Below are positions 6,400-31,774 of a stretch of DNA of 32,000 bases, piece by piece. The DNA lies in the NCBI GenBank assembly GCA_005191425.1, contig SUPR01000003.1, positions 1 to 32,000 on the forward strand, written 5' to 3'. Each line of letters begins with the position of its first letter. Positions within the stretch are counted from its first letter, which is position 1. Made by a program: the position numbers and the translations under genes. The notes beneath the pieces were generated by a model that was not told the DNA's origin, made no database searches, and saw only the letters and a list, made by a program, of their open reading frames with translations. The stretch is from Candidatus Helarchaeota ASGARD archaeon Hel_GB_B. Its GTDB lineage: Archaea; Asgardarchaeota; Lokiarchaeia; Helarchaeales; HEL-GB-B.

Positions 6400-6552
6400 A
6401 ATTATTACCTAAAAAGTTTAGATAAAATTATTTAATAGTAAACTAACTTTAATCGTTTTTGTTTTTTTGTCGATATTTTAATTTTTTTTATTAATTGTTT
6501 CATTTATCTAATTAGTCGTACATAGAGTTCATCGAAAATAAAAAATTTTAAT

Positions 6553-7680
6553 CTACTCAGAAACTTTTTCTATTATAAAAAATGGAAAAATTGGGGCTAA
6601 TAATTCAGTAGCTTTCTCAAATACCATTAAATCTCTAACATCATTTTTAATTTCTTTCTGAAATTTTAACTCAAAATTCTTTAAAAATAAAATTAATGCT
6701 TTATCTAAAAAATAAGTAACTTTATCAGTTATTAATAGTGCTACAGTTTTTTCTCCTGTTTCCATTAGGATACTAAGCCTCTTGCTTGAAATTTCACTTA
6801 TTGCTGTTTCTTCTTTAAAAATTTCTTTAAACACATTATTTATGGCTGATATCATCCCTGACAATAAAACCTCTTCTACGTTAATTTTTTTACGAGTCTT
6901 AAACCGAACTGAATATAAAGGAGTACCTGATTTTTCAAGTACCATTAGCAAATAATTATCATTCGGTAATCTATAAAGATAATTTATATTACTTAAGTAA
7001 GTAATTACAAACATAATTATTCCAATGAATGGGAATATATTTGCATAATTTGATAAATCATTTATTAAATCAGGTTTTGGGATCGATATTGTAAATACAT
7101 TTAAAATAAAGTACATATCGTTTAATAAAGAAATTATAAACCCAAAACTAACAAAAACTAATGCTACAAATAATATTATTGGCATTTTTTCTTTTGTATA
7201 AATATATGTCTTTATATAAATAACTGAACCCATTCCTAAATATACAAATAAAGCTGGCGTCCAATATCCAATATCCGCAAGAACCCAAGCAATATCTGCA
7301 TTGAGTGAATTAACCCGGCAATAAAATACTTGCCATAATCCAATTGTTTGTATTATTAAAAAGCCCGTCATAATCGAAAGTCTTATAGAATTAAGTTTTT
7401 TTGATATTAATTGCTCAAAAAAGATATAAAAGAAAAAGAAATGAAGTCCATACAAATTTAAATGTAATGATTGGAAAAAATTACTAATATTTGTATAACT
7501 TGAGAAAAATAATTCATTAATAATCGCTACCAATCCAGCTAAAAATCCAAATGTCAAACTTATCAAAAATGACCACGCTGTTTTGTGATATCTTATCATT
7601 TGAATTGTAAATAATATCACTAATATTCCAAATGCTATTGTTATAAGCAAGATTGTCCATTCAGTAATTCCTAAAGCCAT
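6553..7680 (-). CDS. Predicted 7-TM membrane protein with C-terminal longin-like domain
   Basis: Seven hydrophobic segments in aa ~8-230. The soluble aa ~241-368 region (LLMVLEKSGTPLYSVRF...LLSGMISAINNVFKEIF...LFLKNFELKF...FEKATELLAPIF) follows the longin-like pattern common in Asgard proteins. Confidence 0.72.
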   Translation of the reverse strand: MALGITEWTILLITIAFGILVILFTIQMIRYHKTAWSFLISLTFGFLAGLVAIINELFFSSYTNISNFFQSLHLNLYGLHFFFFYIFFEQLISKKLNSIRLSIMTGFLIIQTIGLWQVFYCRVNSLNADIAWVLADIGYWTPALFVYLGMGSVIYIKTYIYTKEKMPIILFVALVFVSFGFIISLLNDMYFILNVFTISIPKPDLINDLSNYANIFPFIGIIMFVITYLSNINYLYRLPNDNYLLMVLEKSGTPLYSVRFKTRKKINVEEVLLSGMISAINNVFKEIFKEETAISEISSKRLSILMETGEKTVALLITDKVTYFLDKALILFLKNFELKFQKEIKNDVRDLMVFEKATELLAPIFPFFIIEKVSE

Positions 7681-27041: not shown

Positions 27042-28178
27042 CTAGAAGCACCTGTGGACTACGGGTGGACCAATTTCATTGTATTCCTTTCGAGTAACCC
27101 ACATCTTCTGAAATGTCTTTAATGAGGCTAAAATTGAGCCACCTATCCAAACGGAATACATTCTTTCAGGAGGTGCTATAATTTTCACTTCTACATTGTC
27201 TGGTATCATCTCTGATATCTCTTTTGTCAATCTCTCTTTTAGTCCTTGATACATTGAGCTACCTCCTGATAATATGATATTACCATATAAATCTCTTCGT
27301 AAGTCTATATCACATTTCGATACTGCTTGGACAATTACTTCATCAAGGGGCGGAGTTTCTTTTCCCACAGCCCCTGGGTTAAAGAATACCTCTGGTGCTA
27401 AAAATCTCTCAACACCTATAATTAAAGTGGACCCATCTGGGAGTAAATACGATTTTTCCATTCCGCTTACTTTTTCTGCATATCGCAATTCTTTTTCTGG
27501 GTCAAGTGCTACATAACATAATTTCTCTTTTATATCTCTAACAATTTCTTTTTCTGCTGATGTTGTTAATGAATATCCTCTCTGTCGTAATAGCCTCATT
27601 AAGTATTCAGTAATATCCCTTCCTGCTAGGTCTAACCTTGAAATAGCATGTGTCAGAGCAAACCCTTCATAAATTGGTACAATATGTGTAACTCCTGTTC
27701 CTGAGTCGCAAACAAGTCCGGTAGTACGTCCTGAAGCATATAATGAGAGAACTGCTTGCATTGAAACATAAAGTGCTGGAACTCCAAATGTTTCAAACAT
27801 AATTTCACACATTTTCTCTCTATTAGGTCTTGGGTTTAGTGGTGGTTCTGTTAAAAGTATAGGATGCTCAGCAGGGTCAACTCGTAAATCTGTATAAAAT
27901 GTATAATGCCAAATCTTCTCCATAGCACCCCAATCTTCCACTATTCCGTGTCCAATTGGATATGATAGCCTTAAAACACCTCTTAGTTGTAAAGCTTCCT
28001 CTCCAATGTAATATTCCCTAGTATAATGTTCTACATCTGACATTATTGAAGTAAATTTTGGATAGCCAATTAGAGTTGGGAAAACTGATCTGGGTTGGTC
28101 TTCACCTGCATAGCCATTTTTTGTGATTCCTGTCCCATTATCTATTACAATTGGTTTTTGAAATACTCCTTCTTCCAT
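27042..28178 (-). CDS. Actin (conserved Lokiactin/Asgard actin)
   Basis: [121 protein letters not shown]; 378 aa. Confidence 0.99.
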
Positions 28179-28185
28179 AAATTAT

Positions 28186-28193
28186 TCACATCC
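28186..28193 (-). promoter_or_regulatory. Shine-Dalgarno-like site of actin
   Basis: GGATGTGA on the minus strand, 7 nt upstream of the ATG. Confidence 0.55.
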
Positions 28194-28210
28194 ATTATAT
28201 ATACAAAATT

Positions 28211-28311
28211 TATTGTTCCAAAGCCGTCCAAAACTAAATAAAATAAAGGAATTATTGCCGAAACACCGACAAAGCCCAACTACTAATTTTGTACCGGCTT
28301 TGTAAACAATA
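28211..28311 (-). ncRNA. Candidate structured 5' leader element upstream of actin
   Basis: 28211-28217 pairs with 28305-28311 and 28219-28226 with 28295-28302. There is an internal 7-bp GU-containing hairpin at 28255-28272 and an alternative 8-bp pairing of 28269-28276 with 28296-28303. Confidence 0.45.
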
Positions 28312-29197
28312 TTCATATTTATATAAACCAATATTTTACTAAATTTATTAAGATCGTGAAATCTATTTCAATATTTGTAATATATCTTTTATTAAATAAA
28401 GATTTTTGAAAATCCTTATTTTAATCGGTTTTATATTAACATTCGAAGAAAAGTAATTTAAACATTTATATTTCTTTATGAACTATAAAGGTGATAATTT
28501 AATAATTTCACTCTAATTTTCAAATGATAATGAAATAAATTATGAATAATAAGAAGTATTTTTTTATATTGACAAATAATATTCAATTAATCGATTTAAC
28601 AATATTCATATACATAATTAAAAACTCCAAACAAATTTTATAGTAAACTTTATAATTGAATCTCCTCAATATATTGTTAATTTTAAAACTTTATCACAAT
28701 AAATTATGAATGATATAAAATTAAATCAATACAATAATTGGTCTAACTATACCTTTTTAAAACGCAATAATTCTTTAATAACCGATTTATTTGTACTAAA
28801 TTTTTAAATTAATTTTAAATATTGAAAAATTGTCGTAGGGAGTAAAGAAATTGAAAAAAATGTTGTATTTTACAATATAGACAATTAGTTTACTACAATA
28901 TATTTGAAATTGGAAAAAATATTTTAATTTAGAACAGTAGGTTATCATTAAAAAGCGATAGTTCCTTATAATTTATTTATTTATTCTAAATTTTTAAAAT
29001 ATTTTCTTTAAATGTTTAAGAATTTTTTAGAGGTTTAAGATATTTATAGAAGTTTTTCTATTAAATTAATTTATTTATCAAATTTTTTTAGAAGGTCATT
29101 GAAAAATGGACACAAACTAAAAATTTTCCGAAAAGAAAAAAAGTTTAAATAATCAATATATTTTAAAATAAATTAAATTGAAAATAACGAAATGTAG

Positions 29198-31774
29198 ATG
29201 AAAATAATGACTGAGCGGAGTAAAAAATTTATCTTAACATTTGACGAGATTGGGATTGAGGATGTGCCACTAGTTGGAGGTAAAAACGCATCTTTAGGCG
29301 AAATGATCAGAAAAGTCAAAGTACCAGTACCACCCGGTTTTGCAATAACTGCATATGCTTATAGATATTTTATTGAGAAATCTAATTTAAAAAAATTAAT
29401 AGAAGATACACTTAAAGACCTTGATACTCATAATATGAAGCAGCTTGCTGAAGTAGGGGAAAAAATTCGTAATGCTATTAGGTCTGCTGAATTACCAAAA
29501 GAATTAAAAGATGAAATCAATAAAGCCTACAAACAATTAAGTATAGATCTAAATATAAAGGAAGATATTGATTGTGCTGTTAGGAGTTCTGCAACTGCTG
29601 AAGATTTGCCTGACGCTTCTTTTGCTGGACAACAAGATACCTTTTTGCATGTAAAAGGAATCGATAATATTCTTGAGAAAACGGTAGAATGTTTTGCAAG
29701 CCTTTTTACCAACAGAGCCATTTCGTATCGAGTCGACAAAGGATTTGATCATTTTAGTATAGCATTATCTGTAGGAGTCCAAATGATGGCACGGTCTGAT
29801 CTGGCTTGTTCAGGGGTCGCTTTTAGTATTGATACTGATTCAGGATTTCCAAATGTTGTTTATATTACTGGATCATATGGATTAGGGGAATATGTAGTAC
29901 AGGGTAAGGTAATTCCTGATCAATATTATGTTTTTAAACCTACTAAAACTATAATAAGTAAACAATTGGGAGAAAAACATGTTAAATTAATTTATTTTAA
30001 AGATGGAGTCAAGGAAATGAAGACTCCCGAGGAGGATCGCCAGAAATTTGTGTTGTCTGATGAGCAAATTTTAGAGTTAGCTGAATATGTAATACGTATT
30101 GAAGATCATTATAAAAAACCAATGGATATTGAATGGGGTTTGGACGGGCTATCGAATAAAATATTTATTCTTCAAGCTCGGCCAGAAACAGTTCATTCCC
30201 AGAGAAAAAATTTCATTGAACTTTATAAATTACAAGAACATGGTAAAATTTTAGTTACAGGAGAAGCAGTTGGCTCTAAAATAGGCGAAGGAGCAGTAAA
30301 CATAATTCCATCAGTTAAAGATATTGGAAAGTTCAAAAAAGGACAAGTTCTTGTAACTGAAATGACCAATCCTGATTTTGAACCAATTATGAAAATTGCC
30401 GCTGGAATAGTCACGGATCGTGGTGGAAGGACCTGTCATGCTGCGATAGTATCAAGAGAACTAGGTATTCCATGTGTTATCGGCACAGAAAATGCAACTG
30501 AAATTTTAAAAGCTGGTCAGAATATAACAGTTGATTGTAGTGAAGGTCGCGGAATTGTTTATGAAGGGCTATTAAAATTCGAATTATCAAAAGTTGAACT
30601 CGATAAAATTCCAGAAACAAAAACTCAAATAATGATGAATGTTGGTATTCCAGAAAAAGCTTTTATTTTAGGTCAATTACCCCATAAAGGTGTTGGACTA
30701 GCAAGACTTGAATTTATAATAAATTCACATATACAAATTCACCCCACATTCCTTTTAAAATATTCTAATATAAAAGATTGGGTAACTGGTAAATCCAAAA
30801 ACTTAGATCTAGATAAAGAATTTGCTGATGTGATACGGTCTGATGAAGAATTAAAGGAAATGAAAAAATATTATGAAGATCTATTACCAACAGTCAAAAA
30901 ATTAACGAGAGGTTATGAGGACAAATCAAAATATTTTATAGATATTCTAGCTCAAGGAATTGGAAAAATCGCTGCTGCATTTCACCCTTACCCTGTCATC
31001 GTCAGATTATCTGACTTCAAAACTAATGAATATGCTAATTTAATTGGTGGGAAATATTTTGAGCCTGAAGAAAATAACCCCATGATCGGGTGGCGAGGAG
31101 CTTCCAGATATTATAGTGAAAAATATAGAGAATCGTTCAGGTTAGAATGCTTGGCACTTAAAAAAGTTAGAGATGAAATGAAACTTACCAATGTAAAAGT
31201 GATGATCCCATTCTGTAGAACACCAGAAGAAGGCGAAAAAGTTATAAATATCATGAAAGATTTCGGACTTGTTCAAGGTGAAAACGGACTTGAAGTTTAT
31301 GTAATGTGTGAAATTCCCAGTAATGTAATTTTAGCTGATGTATACTCTAAAATCTTCGATGGTTTCTCAATTGGTAGCAATGATTTAACACAATTAACTT
31401 TAGGACTGGACCGAGATAGTGAACTAGTACAATCATTATTTAATGAGCGCCATGAAGCAGTTAAAAAGATGTTGAAAATGGTAATTGAAATAGCAAACAA
31501 AAATAATAAAAAGATCGGTATATGTGGACAAGGCCCAAGCGATTTTCCAAGTTTAGCTGCATTTCTTGTGGAATGTGGGATCAATTCAATGTCTTTAAAT
31601 TCGGATGTAGTTGTTCAGACTATTGGTCTAGTAAAAATTCTTGAGCATGCCATGTCTGAAGGTAAAACTTTTTCAGACCTAACTCCTGACTACATAAAAT
31701 CCGTCCCCAATGTAGATAAAAATTTAAAACAATTAGCAATCGCAATGATTGAAAATGAAAATAAAAACTCGTAA
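29198..31774 (+). CDS. ppsA: Phosphoenolpyruvate synthase (pyruvate, water dikinase)
   Basis: VGGKNASLGEM, AVRSSATAEDLPDASFAGQQDT, MDIEW, LQARPETV, GGRTCHAAIVSRELG (phospho-His), RLSDFKTNEY, GFSIGSNDLTQL, GICGQ. Confidence 0.98.
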   Translation: MKIMTERSKKFILTFDEIGIEDVPLVGGKNASLGEMIRKVKVPVPPGFAITAYAYRYFIEKSNLKKLIEDTLKDLDTHNMKQLAEVGEKIRNAIRSAELPKELKDEINKAYKQLSIDLNIKEDIDCAVRSSATAEDLPDASFAGQQDTFLHVKGIDNILEKTVECFASLFTNRAISYRVDKGFDHFSIALSVGVQMMARSDLACSGVAFSIDTDSGFPNVVYITGSYGLGEYVVQGKVIPDQYYVFKPTKTIISKQLGEKHVKLIYFKDGVKEMKTPEEDRQKFVLSDEQILELAEYVIRIEDHYKKPMDIEWGLDGLSNKIFILQARPETVHSQRKNFIELYKLQEHGKILVTGEAVGSKIGEGAVNIIPSVKDIGKFKKGQVLVTEMTNPDFEPIMKIAAGIVTDRGGRTCHAAIVSRELGIPCVIGTENATEILKAGQNITVDCSEGRGIVYEGLLKFELSKVELDKIPETKTQIMMNVGIPEKAFILGQLPHKGVGLARLEFIINSHIQIHPTFLLKYSNIKDWVTGKSKNLDLDKEFADVIRSDEELKEMKKYYEDLLPTVKKLTRGYEDKSKYFIDILAQGIGKIAAAFHPYPVIVRLSDFKTNEYANLIGGKYFEPEENNPMIGWRGASRYYSEKYRESFRLECLALKKVRDEMKLTNVKVMIPFCRTPEEGEKVINIMKDFGLVQGENGLEVYVMCEIPSNVILADVYSKIFDGFSIGSNDLTQLTLGLDRDSELVQSLFNERHEAVKKMLKMVIEIANKNNKKIGICGQGPSDFPSLAAFLVECGINSMSLNSDVVVQTIGLVKILEHAMSEGKTFSDLTPDYIKSVPNVDKNLKQLAIAMIENENKNS

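Follow-up and report, generated by a model that had tools for sequence, protein, structure and literature searches.

A stable structured element upstream of the actin gene in a Helarchaeota archaeon and its sister species

How is actin expression controlled in the archaea that carry a eukaryote-like actin gene? To our knowledge, how Asgard archaea regulate the abundance of this protein has not been described, and our literature search for Asgard actin leaders and Asgard transcription start site (TSS) maps returned no papers. We addressed the question at the actin locus of Candidatus Helarchaeota archaeon Hel_GB_B, using the first 32,000 nucleotides (nt) of contig SUPR01000003.1 (assembly GCA_005191425.1), here called the window. 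The source assembly (the query genome, G000) is a 3.54-Mb metagenome-assembled genome with 28% GC. The lokiactin-type actin gene (378 amino acids [aa]), recognized from its open reading frame (ORF) and translation, lies on the minus strand at positions 27042 to 28178, with its ATG at 28178; the 90%-identity protein cluster that contains its product includes entries named "actin ... Candidatus Helarchaeota archaeon". An initial annotation of the window described a GC-enriched 101-nt patch, 28211 to 28311, upstream of this gene and proposed that it is a switch-like cis-regulatory RNA or small noncoding RNA (ncRNA). The reading that we favor, with about even confidence, is that the patch is a genus-specific structured RNA domain inside an unusually long (~190- to 265-nt) 5' untranslated region (UTR) of the actin mRNA. 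Features of the actin leader below are on the minus (actin-sense) strand unless stated otherwise.

RESULTS

The element folds into a single RNA-type rod

The pairings described in the annotation, at the coordinates it gave, are all present on the actin-sense strand; they comprise the main structure (fold A), an inner hairpin, and an alternative pairing (fold B). Over the 101 nt (28211 to 28311), fold A has a minimum free energy (MFE) of −33.7 kcal/mol and 38 base pairs, 7 of which are G-U. The annotation had named dinucleotide shuffling as a check on the fold energy, and the element was more stable than all of the shuffled sequences (0 of 200 as good; z = −5.96). Because 7 of the 38 pairs are G-U, the opposite strand is much less stable (MFE of −16.9 kcal/mol; z = −2.6); the annotation had noted that the two G-U pairs of the inner hairpin form only on the actin-sense strand.

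The 101 nt form a rod consisting of an outer helix (P1), a 3 by 2 internal loop, a second helix (P2), a short 3-bp helix, and an apical hairpin. In the MFE fold, P1 pairs UAUUGUUU.CAAAGCCG with CGGCUUUGGAACAAUA. Its outer part joins UAUUGUU (28311 to 28305) to AACAAUA (28217 to 28211), and its inner part joins CAAAGCCG (28302 to 28295) to CGGCUUUG (28226 to 28219). The 5' arm, UAUUGUUU-A-CAAAGCCG, thus spans 28295 to 28311, and the 3' arm, CGGCUUUG-G-AACAAUA, spans 28211 to 28226 and contains a YUUUGGA motif common to the sister species described below. P2 is the helix CAAAAUUAG/UUAGUUUUG; in the MFE pair table its 5' strand, CAAAAUUAGUAG (28280 to 28291), carries a second copy of the ACAAAR unit, and its 3' strand, UUA-U-UUAGUUUUG (28229 to 28241), is a U-rich tract with a second copy of the YUUUGG unit. 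The arms therefore look internally duplicated (ACAAAG..ACAAAA and UUUUGGA..CUUUGGA). The inner, apical hairpin is UUGUCGG-UGUU-UCGGCAA (28255 to 28272), with two G-U pairs, and is followed by the U-rich tail.

The structure extends beyond the 101 nt. In a local-fold scan, the flanks AUAUGAA and UUUGUAU lengthened P1 by ~7 bp, giving −36.2 kcal/mol over 119 nt (28200 to 28318), and at a span limit of 150 nt the 148-nt segment from 28187 to 28334 reached −41.7 kcal/mol (z = −5.3). G and C fall preferentially at paired positions (Fisher P = 0.03). The described GC enrichment was confirmed: this is the sole GC-enriched patch of the actin 5' spacer, with a GC fraction of 0.34 to 0.35 inside versus 0.14 to 0.19 outside. 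The distance of 17 nt from its 3' edge to the Shine-Dalgarno (SD)-like sequence GGAUGUGA (28193 to 28186) is also as described; depending on how far the rod is taken to extend, it ends 6 to 17 nt before GGAUGUGA.

We scanned the 646 kb of the query genome that lie outside ORFs of at least 100 aa, on both strands, and obtained 1,303 nonoverlapping local structures. With its flanks (28200 to 28318), the element ranked 36th of the 1,303 by stability and 4th of the 29 structures that end 5 to 70 nt upstream of a same-strand ORF. It ranked 5th among structures with a GC fraction of ≤0.36, the others being near-perfect palindromes or members of repeat families. Only 3 of 1,200 (0.25%) random 240-nt intergenic segments, folded with a span of ≤150 nt, matched −41.7 kcal/mol. 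The stability of the element is far beyond chance, and the observation is real. The genes behind the other structured leaders included HDAC, PRPP synthetase, and unknowns, and no common theme was found among them.

A structured domain recurs at the same position in the sister species

The genus is represented by two genomes, the query and a sister species (G001), both assemblies being ~93% complete; a metagenome scan returned only the G001 contig again for this genus. Public data hold further close actin variants from the 90% protein cluster, P0005 (99.7%) and P0014 (96.6%). The actin of G001 is 97% identical to that of the query in protein and 81% identical in DNA. At fourfold-degenerate sites the two genes are 41% identical, versus ~36% expected from composition. 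These sites are near saturation, so unconstrained DNA should be essentially randomized between the two species, and any spacer sequence that they share reflects either selection or chance.

The 1-kb spacer is unalignable between the species apart from three short colinear blocks. In the leader, the same elements follow one another in both: a promoter-like block A, a second block B, a helix-closed domain, TAATGGATGTG, and the ATG. The G001 domain occupies 139 nt in the interval from block B to the SD, and its closing helix is GGCUCCAAAA.CUCG / CGAG.UUUUGGAGCU. It folds at −30.7 kcal/mol (z = −4.5), and 2 to 4% of random intergenic segments of the query genome fold as well; we regard it as a modestly significant out-of-sample replication. 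The GC fractions of the domains are 0.35 (query) and 0.28 (G001), versus 0.14 to 0.16 in the leader flanks. Spacing is similar in both species, with 75 to 85 nt between block B and the 5' arm and 17 to 23 nt between the 3' arm and the SD. The 3' arms share GCUUUGGA / GCUUUUGGA at nearly equal distances from the SD, with partners CAAAG / CAAAA in the 5' arms, and this shared helix core (CAAAR/YUUUGG) is identical apart from one G-C to A-U exchange. The rest of the helices use different bases, and the interiors and inner hairpins are unrelated.

The element most likely lies within the actin leader

Block A (28456 to 28490; CTTTATAGTTCATAAAGAAATATAAATGTTTAAAT) resembles a B recognition element plus TATA box and is proposed to be the actin promoter. 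Its core 16-mer, ATATAAATGTTTAAAT (28471 to 28456), is identical in G001 at 16 of 16 positions, with conserved flanks (E = 4.7e-4), and stands at −293 from the ATG in the query and at −338 in G001. Block B (GATTTTCAAAAATCTTTATTTAATA, also written GATTTTCAAAAA..CTTATTTAATA; 28414 to 28390, or −236 to −212) is identical at 22 of 25 positions and colinear in G001. The gene upstream of the spacer differs between the two species, so the conserved blocks belong to actin.

The sequence GGAUGUGA lies in a conserved stretch (28186 to 28197) with the 11-mer TAATGGATGTG (28197 to 28187), which is identical in G001 (11 of 11) and equally distant from the ATG. GGAUGUGA agrees with the canonical archaeal GGAGGUGA at seven of eight positions. 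Genome-wide, G is enriched at −14 to −8 before start codons, and SD-led translation is the rule in the query genome, as judged from base frequencies upstream of genes, the assembly having no small-subunit rRNA from which to read the anti-SD. By its sequence and position the GGAUGUGA block is the actin SD. Since the SD is conserved and SD-led translation is usual, the TSS should be upstream of 28193 and the actin mRNA should have a leader.

On the sense strand there are three TATA-like candidates: block A, a palindrome at 28327 to 28318, and a sequence at ~28213 to 28195. The last is unlikely because a start there would drop the conserved SD from the RNA. The palindrome, TTTATATAAA (28318 to 28327, strand unspecified), is present as the annotation stated and abuts the 5' arm in a region of ~85% A+T; G001 has a TATA-like TGTATATATA adjoining its own 5' arm. 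Unlike blocks A and B, these boxes are not conserved in sequence, and chance boxes are expected at 85% A+T. An attempt to derive a promoter consensus for the organism gave no positional k-mer signal, only 8 tRNA genes were found, and the sole strand asymmetry was a general A-richness; the competing TATA-like boxes could therefore not be ranked. In both species the interval from the element to the ATG is free of oligo-T runs of ≥5, so transcription that enters the element should read into actin. We consider the leader its most likely location because promoter-like blocks lie upstream of it and the SD downstream, no oligo-T terminator intervenes, and an equivalent domain is colinear in G001. The interpretation in the annotation is thus partly supported: the element is a real, highly stable, strand-asymmetric RNA-type structure, most likely part of the actin leader; a free-standing small RNA is unlikely, with no terminator before actin.

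The 5' spacer itself is 1,019 bp long with 14 to 19% GC, reaches to a divergent phosphoenolpyruvate (PEP) synthase/pyruvate phosphate dikinase (PPDK) gene, and is longer than 95% of the non-ORF gaps in the genome. The noncoding region 5' of actin is ~1 kb in both species of the genus versus ~270 nt in other Helarchaeales. We dropped the idea that this AT-rich spacer is a replication origin; its neighbors are PEP synthase/PPDK, lipid, and ATP-grasp genes, not orc/cdc6 or mcm. The spacer also holds two pairs of imperfect direct repeats (28514 to 28551 with 28678 to 28715 and 28778 to 28815 with 28968 to 29005), 76 to 82% identical and 164 to 190 nt apart, which are not conserved in G001.

The element matches no described family

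A search with 4,227 Rfam models gave no match at E ≤ 10 over 27900 to 29400 on either strand, and Rfam 15 at gathering scores gave none in the whole window. A permissive Rfam search of G001 returned just two chance-level matches, elsewhere in the G001 spacer. A tRNA scan of the window found none. Inspection of the predicted structures revealed no C/D, H/ACA, or K-turn motifs. The MFE structures also lack the archaeal bulge-helix-bulge, which has two opposite 3-nt bulges and a 4-bp helix between them: the query has a 1-nt bulge, a 3 by 2 internal loop, and a 3-nt bulge 8 bp apart, and G001 has only 1 by 1 and 2 by 2 loops.

In the whole 3.54-Mb assembly, a copy search returned only the self-match of the element, and the G001 counterpart is likewise single-copy in G001 with no copy in the query genome. 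Single-copy status in both genomes rules out a multicopy mobile element of the miniature inverted-repeat transposable element (MITE) type. Terminal inverted repeats are present, and the flanking TATA/TA is uninformative as a target-site duplication in 85% A+T DNA. The element belongs to no described family, and its proposed kind, a lineage-specific structured 5' UTR domain of an archaeal mRNA, is already known.

The alternative fold is weak and has no equivalent in the sister species

The switch proposed in the annotation rests on fold B, in which ACAAAGCC of the 5' arm (28303 to 28296) pairs with GGCUUUGU (28276 to 28269) as a perfect 8-bp alternative. For all nascent RNAs of 44 to 84 nt, the predicted structure is fold B (−12 to −14.6 kcal/mol), which overlaps with the apical hairpin. 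It is the favored intermediate only until the 3' arm has been transcribed; in the complete element fold A is better by 14 kcal/mol (−33.7 versus −19.6 kcal/mol for the constrained fold B). No alternative pairing of ≥6 bp exists for the 5' arm of G001. Across 1.3 kb, a single terminator-like site was detected (1 versus 0.2 ± 0.5 in shuffles), namely the inner hairpin plus its T-rich tail, and the G001 leader has no sense-strand terminator-like hairpin. We found no conserved aptamer core, the domain interior being unalignable between the two species. Fold B trails fold A by 14 kcal/mol and lacks a G001 counterpart, and the interior is not conserved; a switch is not supported.

Actin upstream regions of more distant relatives

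Actin orthologues were present in 41 of 41 related genomes searched, with G001 as the one congener, five genomes from the order (88 to 92% protein identity), and many from the class (77 to 80%). The metagenome scan added two order-level contigs. No comparably stable structure was found in the actin leaders of other Helarchaeales and Lokiarchaeales (z of −0.3 to −4.0), and the domain is genus specific. In other Helarchaeales, the actin start codon is preceded at 87 to 164 nt by a TATA-like box, which itself follows a TCATCTATA-type motif. The best local alignments of the query and G001 to these regions repeatedly fall on block A, and block A alignments also reach a "GATAAAAATATATAAATG" block ~100 nt upstream of Lokiarchaeales actins. 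These resemblances hint that block A may be the ancestral actin core promoter, from which the leader would have been lengthened by ~200 nt in this genus.

Several other features recur in these regions. Across Helarchaeales (L011 to L015, L041, and L010) the TCATCTATA-type box precedes the actin TATA-like box by ~35 to 45 nt. Some genomes also carry its inverted partner, TATAGATGA; the box is degenerate in the query (28490 to 28480 region) and may be a regulator-binding site. Lokiarchaeales-type actin loci (L019 to L038, L049 to L068, and L101; alignment A2) have a conserved layout over about −230 to −1 from the ATG: an invariant AAATTTATA at ~−195, then TTATTA, a hairpin or palindrome, and always GATAAAAATATAAAAA at ~−100. 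The palindrome arms vary by genus and stay complementary (TTTATCGATATTATTAT/ATAATAT.GATAAA, TTTATAAC/GTTATAAA, ATCAAAAA/TTTTTGAT, and GTAATATTT/AAATATTAC), and the mean fold z score is −1.6, with 27 of 28 values negative. The palindrome may act either in RNA, as a leader hairpin, or in DNA, as an operator that immediately precedes a second TATA box. At the SD position (−15 to −6 from the actin start), the Lokiarchaeales-type loci together with L009 to L015 and L078 to L093 show motifs that differ among clades but are conserved inside a given clade: GGATGTGA for this genus, TGGTGA for the remaining Helarchaeales, (A/G)GCTGA for Lokiarchaeales-type genomes, and GAGGACCGA for one further Asgard group. 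A single mismatch, at a position that is normally paired, separates GCTGA from GGTGA.

Other structures seen in the genome scan

Query contig C12 has a perfect 24-bp stem at 6546 to 6631 (26% GC; −36.9 kcal/mol). It is separated by 83 nt from the preceding gene and by 38 nt from a downstream 133-aa ORF without a Pfam match. A multicopy structured element of ~110 nt, beginning GTGGACGGGATAGAGGCGTTTGGGGTCACGCC..., occurs at C18:8532-8652, C99:36426-36535, and C110:20-128 and near the ends of C105, C116, C148, C35, and C95; it is often at contig ends, and reverse-complement-like copies are found at C93:43023-43141 and C119:573-691. This element probably represents an insertion-sequence terminus or some other repeat at which the assembly breaks. 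The short contig C66 (416 to 528, 1790 to 1907, 2012 to 2115, and 5883 to 5973) carries, between minus-strand genes, several copies of a near-perfect hairpin, TAGCTACCGAGTAGCTTTAAAGCTACTCGGTAGCTA, and tandem AAATTCAGTCAGTTCATTGACGGAA units.

DISCUSSION

In the reading that we favor, actin transcription would start most likely downstream of block A (~28440), and at the latest after block B (~28368). We infer that it would then pass through the 101-nt patch into actin, with no terminator between. Once the 3' arm had been made, CAAAGCCG/CGGCUUUG, UAUUGUU/AACAAUA, and CAAAAUUAG/UUAGUUUUG would zip ~100 nt of the leader into a rod. Selection would appear to keep the long-range helix and the G+C content, not the interior sequence, and for this reason the domain most plausibly acts physically. 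The rod could be a barrier or stabilizer against 5'-end-dependent or endonucleolytic decay of the AU-rich leader, or it could tune the access of ribosomes. A role in stability would be favored over translational masking, because the predicted accessibility of the SD is not clearly changed. A ligand-sensing aptamer is unlikely. The helix may serve as a stabilizing or processing-barrier structure for an abundant message. The evidence for function, from two genomes, is suggestive.

Several observations weigh against this reading. The comparison with relatives proposed in the annotation gave a divided answer: a helix-closed, GC-rich domain does occupy the colinear position in G001, but MAFFT plus RNAalifold on the two domains found no common helix, the query 3' arm being matched with a CUUUGG inside the G001 domain. 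The homology of the helices thus depends on our manual reading of the arms in two genomes. The G001 domain has no strand asymmetry (sense, −28.5 kcal/mol; antisense, −30.8 kcal/mol). Block A is called a promoter from its sequence and conservation, and no single alignment of it to other Helarchaeales or to other orders beats shuffles in this AT-rich DNA. The TATA-like sequences that abut the 5' arm in both species would, if used, start the RNA just past that arm. Neither the domain nor the long leader clearly alters the predicted accessibility of the SD and AUG. Finally, the leaders of other genera have no such domain, so it is not essential for actin expression.

An unlikely alternative is that the element is a neutral or relic palindrome with no role in actin expression, left by an inverted-repeat insertion or arisen as a local quasi-palindrome in an expanded AT-rich region, its self-complementarity perhaps kept by hairpin-templated repair. 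The upstream region has expanded from ~270 nt to ~1 kb in this genus, the genome contains other long near-perfect intergenic hairpins and repeat families, and the element has terminal inverted repeats in TA-rich flanks and arms that look duplicated (ACAAAG/ACAAAA and UUUUGGA/CUUUGGA). With n = 2, the 2 to 4% chance of an accidental structure in G001 is not negligible. However, the element is single-copy in both genomes, and because neutral sites are saturated, an unselected helix and GC patch should have decayed under AT bias; both persist, colinear. The 7 G-U pairs, which would be mismatches in a DNA hairpin, also argue against homogenization at the DNA level. Those pairs, with the twofold difference in folding energy between the strands, also count against the operator suggested in the annotation, which we consider improbable. 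There, a TSS at ~28297, set by the palindrome at 28318 to 28327, would place the arms around the transcript start, either as protein half-sites or as a cruciform. Starts ~22 to 25 nt downstream of TTTATATAAA (at ~28297 to 28293) and of TGTATATATA would lie immediately beyond the 5' arm in the query and in G001 alike. Yet TATA-like octamers are everywhere in ~85% A+T DNA, and the boxes are not conserved while blocks A and B are. The arms differ between species beyond a short core, unlike sites of a shared DNA-binding protein, and half-sites 84 to 125 bp apart would be atypical.

It is very improbable that the element is an independent small ncRNA or encodes a small protein, its place next to actin being incidental. 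In favor are the discrete, GC-rich, highly structured nature of the patch, the TATA-like box 5' of it, and a 49-codon ORF (28182 to 28331) that covers the patch and whose stop lies 3 nt ahead of the actin ATG. But there is no oligo-T terminator between element and actin, no Rfam match, and no C/D or H/ACA box; the ORF has no SD, ORFs of similar length arise by chance elsewhere in the same spacer, and the G001 domain has stops in all three frames. We also give little credence to an attenuator or promoter-choice switch, in which the inner hairpin and U-rich tail (28272 to 28229) would terminate transcription prematurely and the early-forming fold B would block that hairpin and allow read-through; transcripts from the proximal TATA-like box, without the 5' arm, would behave differently. 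This model draws on the perfect 8-bp helix of fold B, its prediction in nascent RNAs of 44 to 84 nt, its overlap with the inner hairpin, and the terminator-like site that is alone in 1.3 kb. We estimate at ~0.002 the probability that 100 nt would contain another exact complement to the 5' arm by chance. Temperature-dependent TSS choice that yields alternative 5' UTRs is known in a methanogen (PMC5378194). Against the model stand the 14-kcal/mol advantage of fold A at equilibrium, the lack in G001 of both an alternative 5'-arm partner (≥6 bp) and a sense-strand terminator-like hairpin, and the absence of a conserved ligand pocket. In addition, the T tract is interrupted (T3-T4-T3-T4) and starts 7 nt past the stem. 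Archaeal termination relies on oligo-T tracts and aCPSF1 and is not known to depend on hairpins, which also counts against an attenuator.

Among known systems, riboswitches and attenuators resemble the element in leader location, in mutually exclusive helices (fold A versus fold B), and in a hairpin followed by a U-rich tract; they differ from it in that the element has no Rfam match at E ≤ 10, no conserved core, and a weak fold B missing from G001. Like MITEs and other palindromic elements, it is ~100 nt long and intergenic, with terminal inverted repeats of 16 to 23 bp and TA-rich flanks, but it is single-copy in both genomes, and at the same locus the arm sequences of query and G001 differ. 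Long, structured, alternative 5' UTRs have been described for methanogen mRNAs (Methanolobus psychrophilus R15 and Methanosarcina mazei; the mtaA/mtaC leaders and Hsp20 isoforms), in which leaders of >150 nt with predicted stem-loops affect transcript stability or mask the ribosome-binding site and several promoters can yield leader isoforms (PMC5378194). The proposed actin leader would have a similar layout: a conserved promoter-like block at a distance, then the structured domain and the SD, and perhaps TATA-like boxes closer in. The methanogen leaders have mapped TSSs and experiments behind them, whereas the actin TSS is placed by inference; there is no sequence or structural homology, the actin SD is not obviously masked, the gene is an Asgard actin, and the domain is limited to one genus. 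In bacteria, the 5' stem-loops of ompA and the Bacillus 5' stabilizer elements place a stable helix upstream of the SD that guards the message from 5'-end-dependent decay. By analogy, we consider this the most likely mechanism for the actin rod, although the bacterial stem is at or near the 5' end while ~55 to 130 nt of leader would precede the actin helix, and archaeal nucleases differ.

If the leader-domain reading holds, actin in this genus would be made from an unusually long structured leader, with a promoter block kept amid randomized surroundings. It is improbable that the element is an actin-dosing device, in which fold B, the terminator-like hairpin, and the long-range helix decide whether a full-length translatable mRNA is made; if true, it would be the first cis-regulatory RNA known for a eukaryote-type cytoskeleton gene in archaea. 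The element is lineage restricted and is for now a lead, not a discovery in itself. The clade-specific yet conserved architectures upstream of actin across Lokiarchaeia may be a more useful lead than the element.

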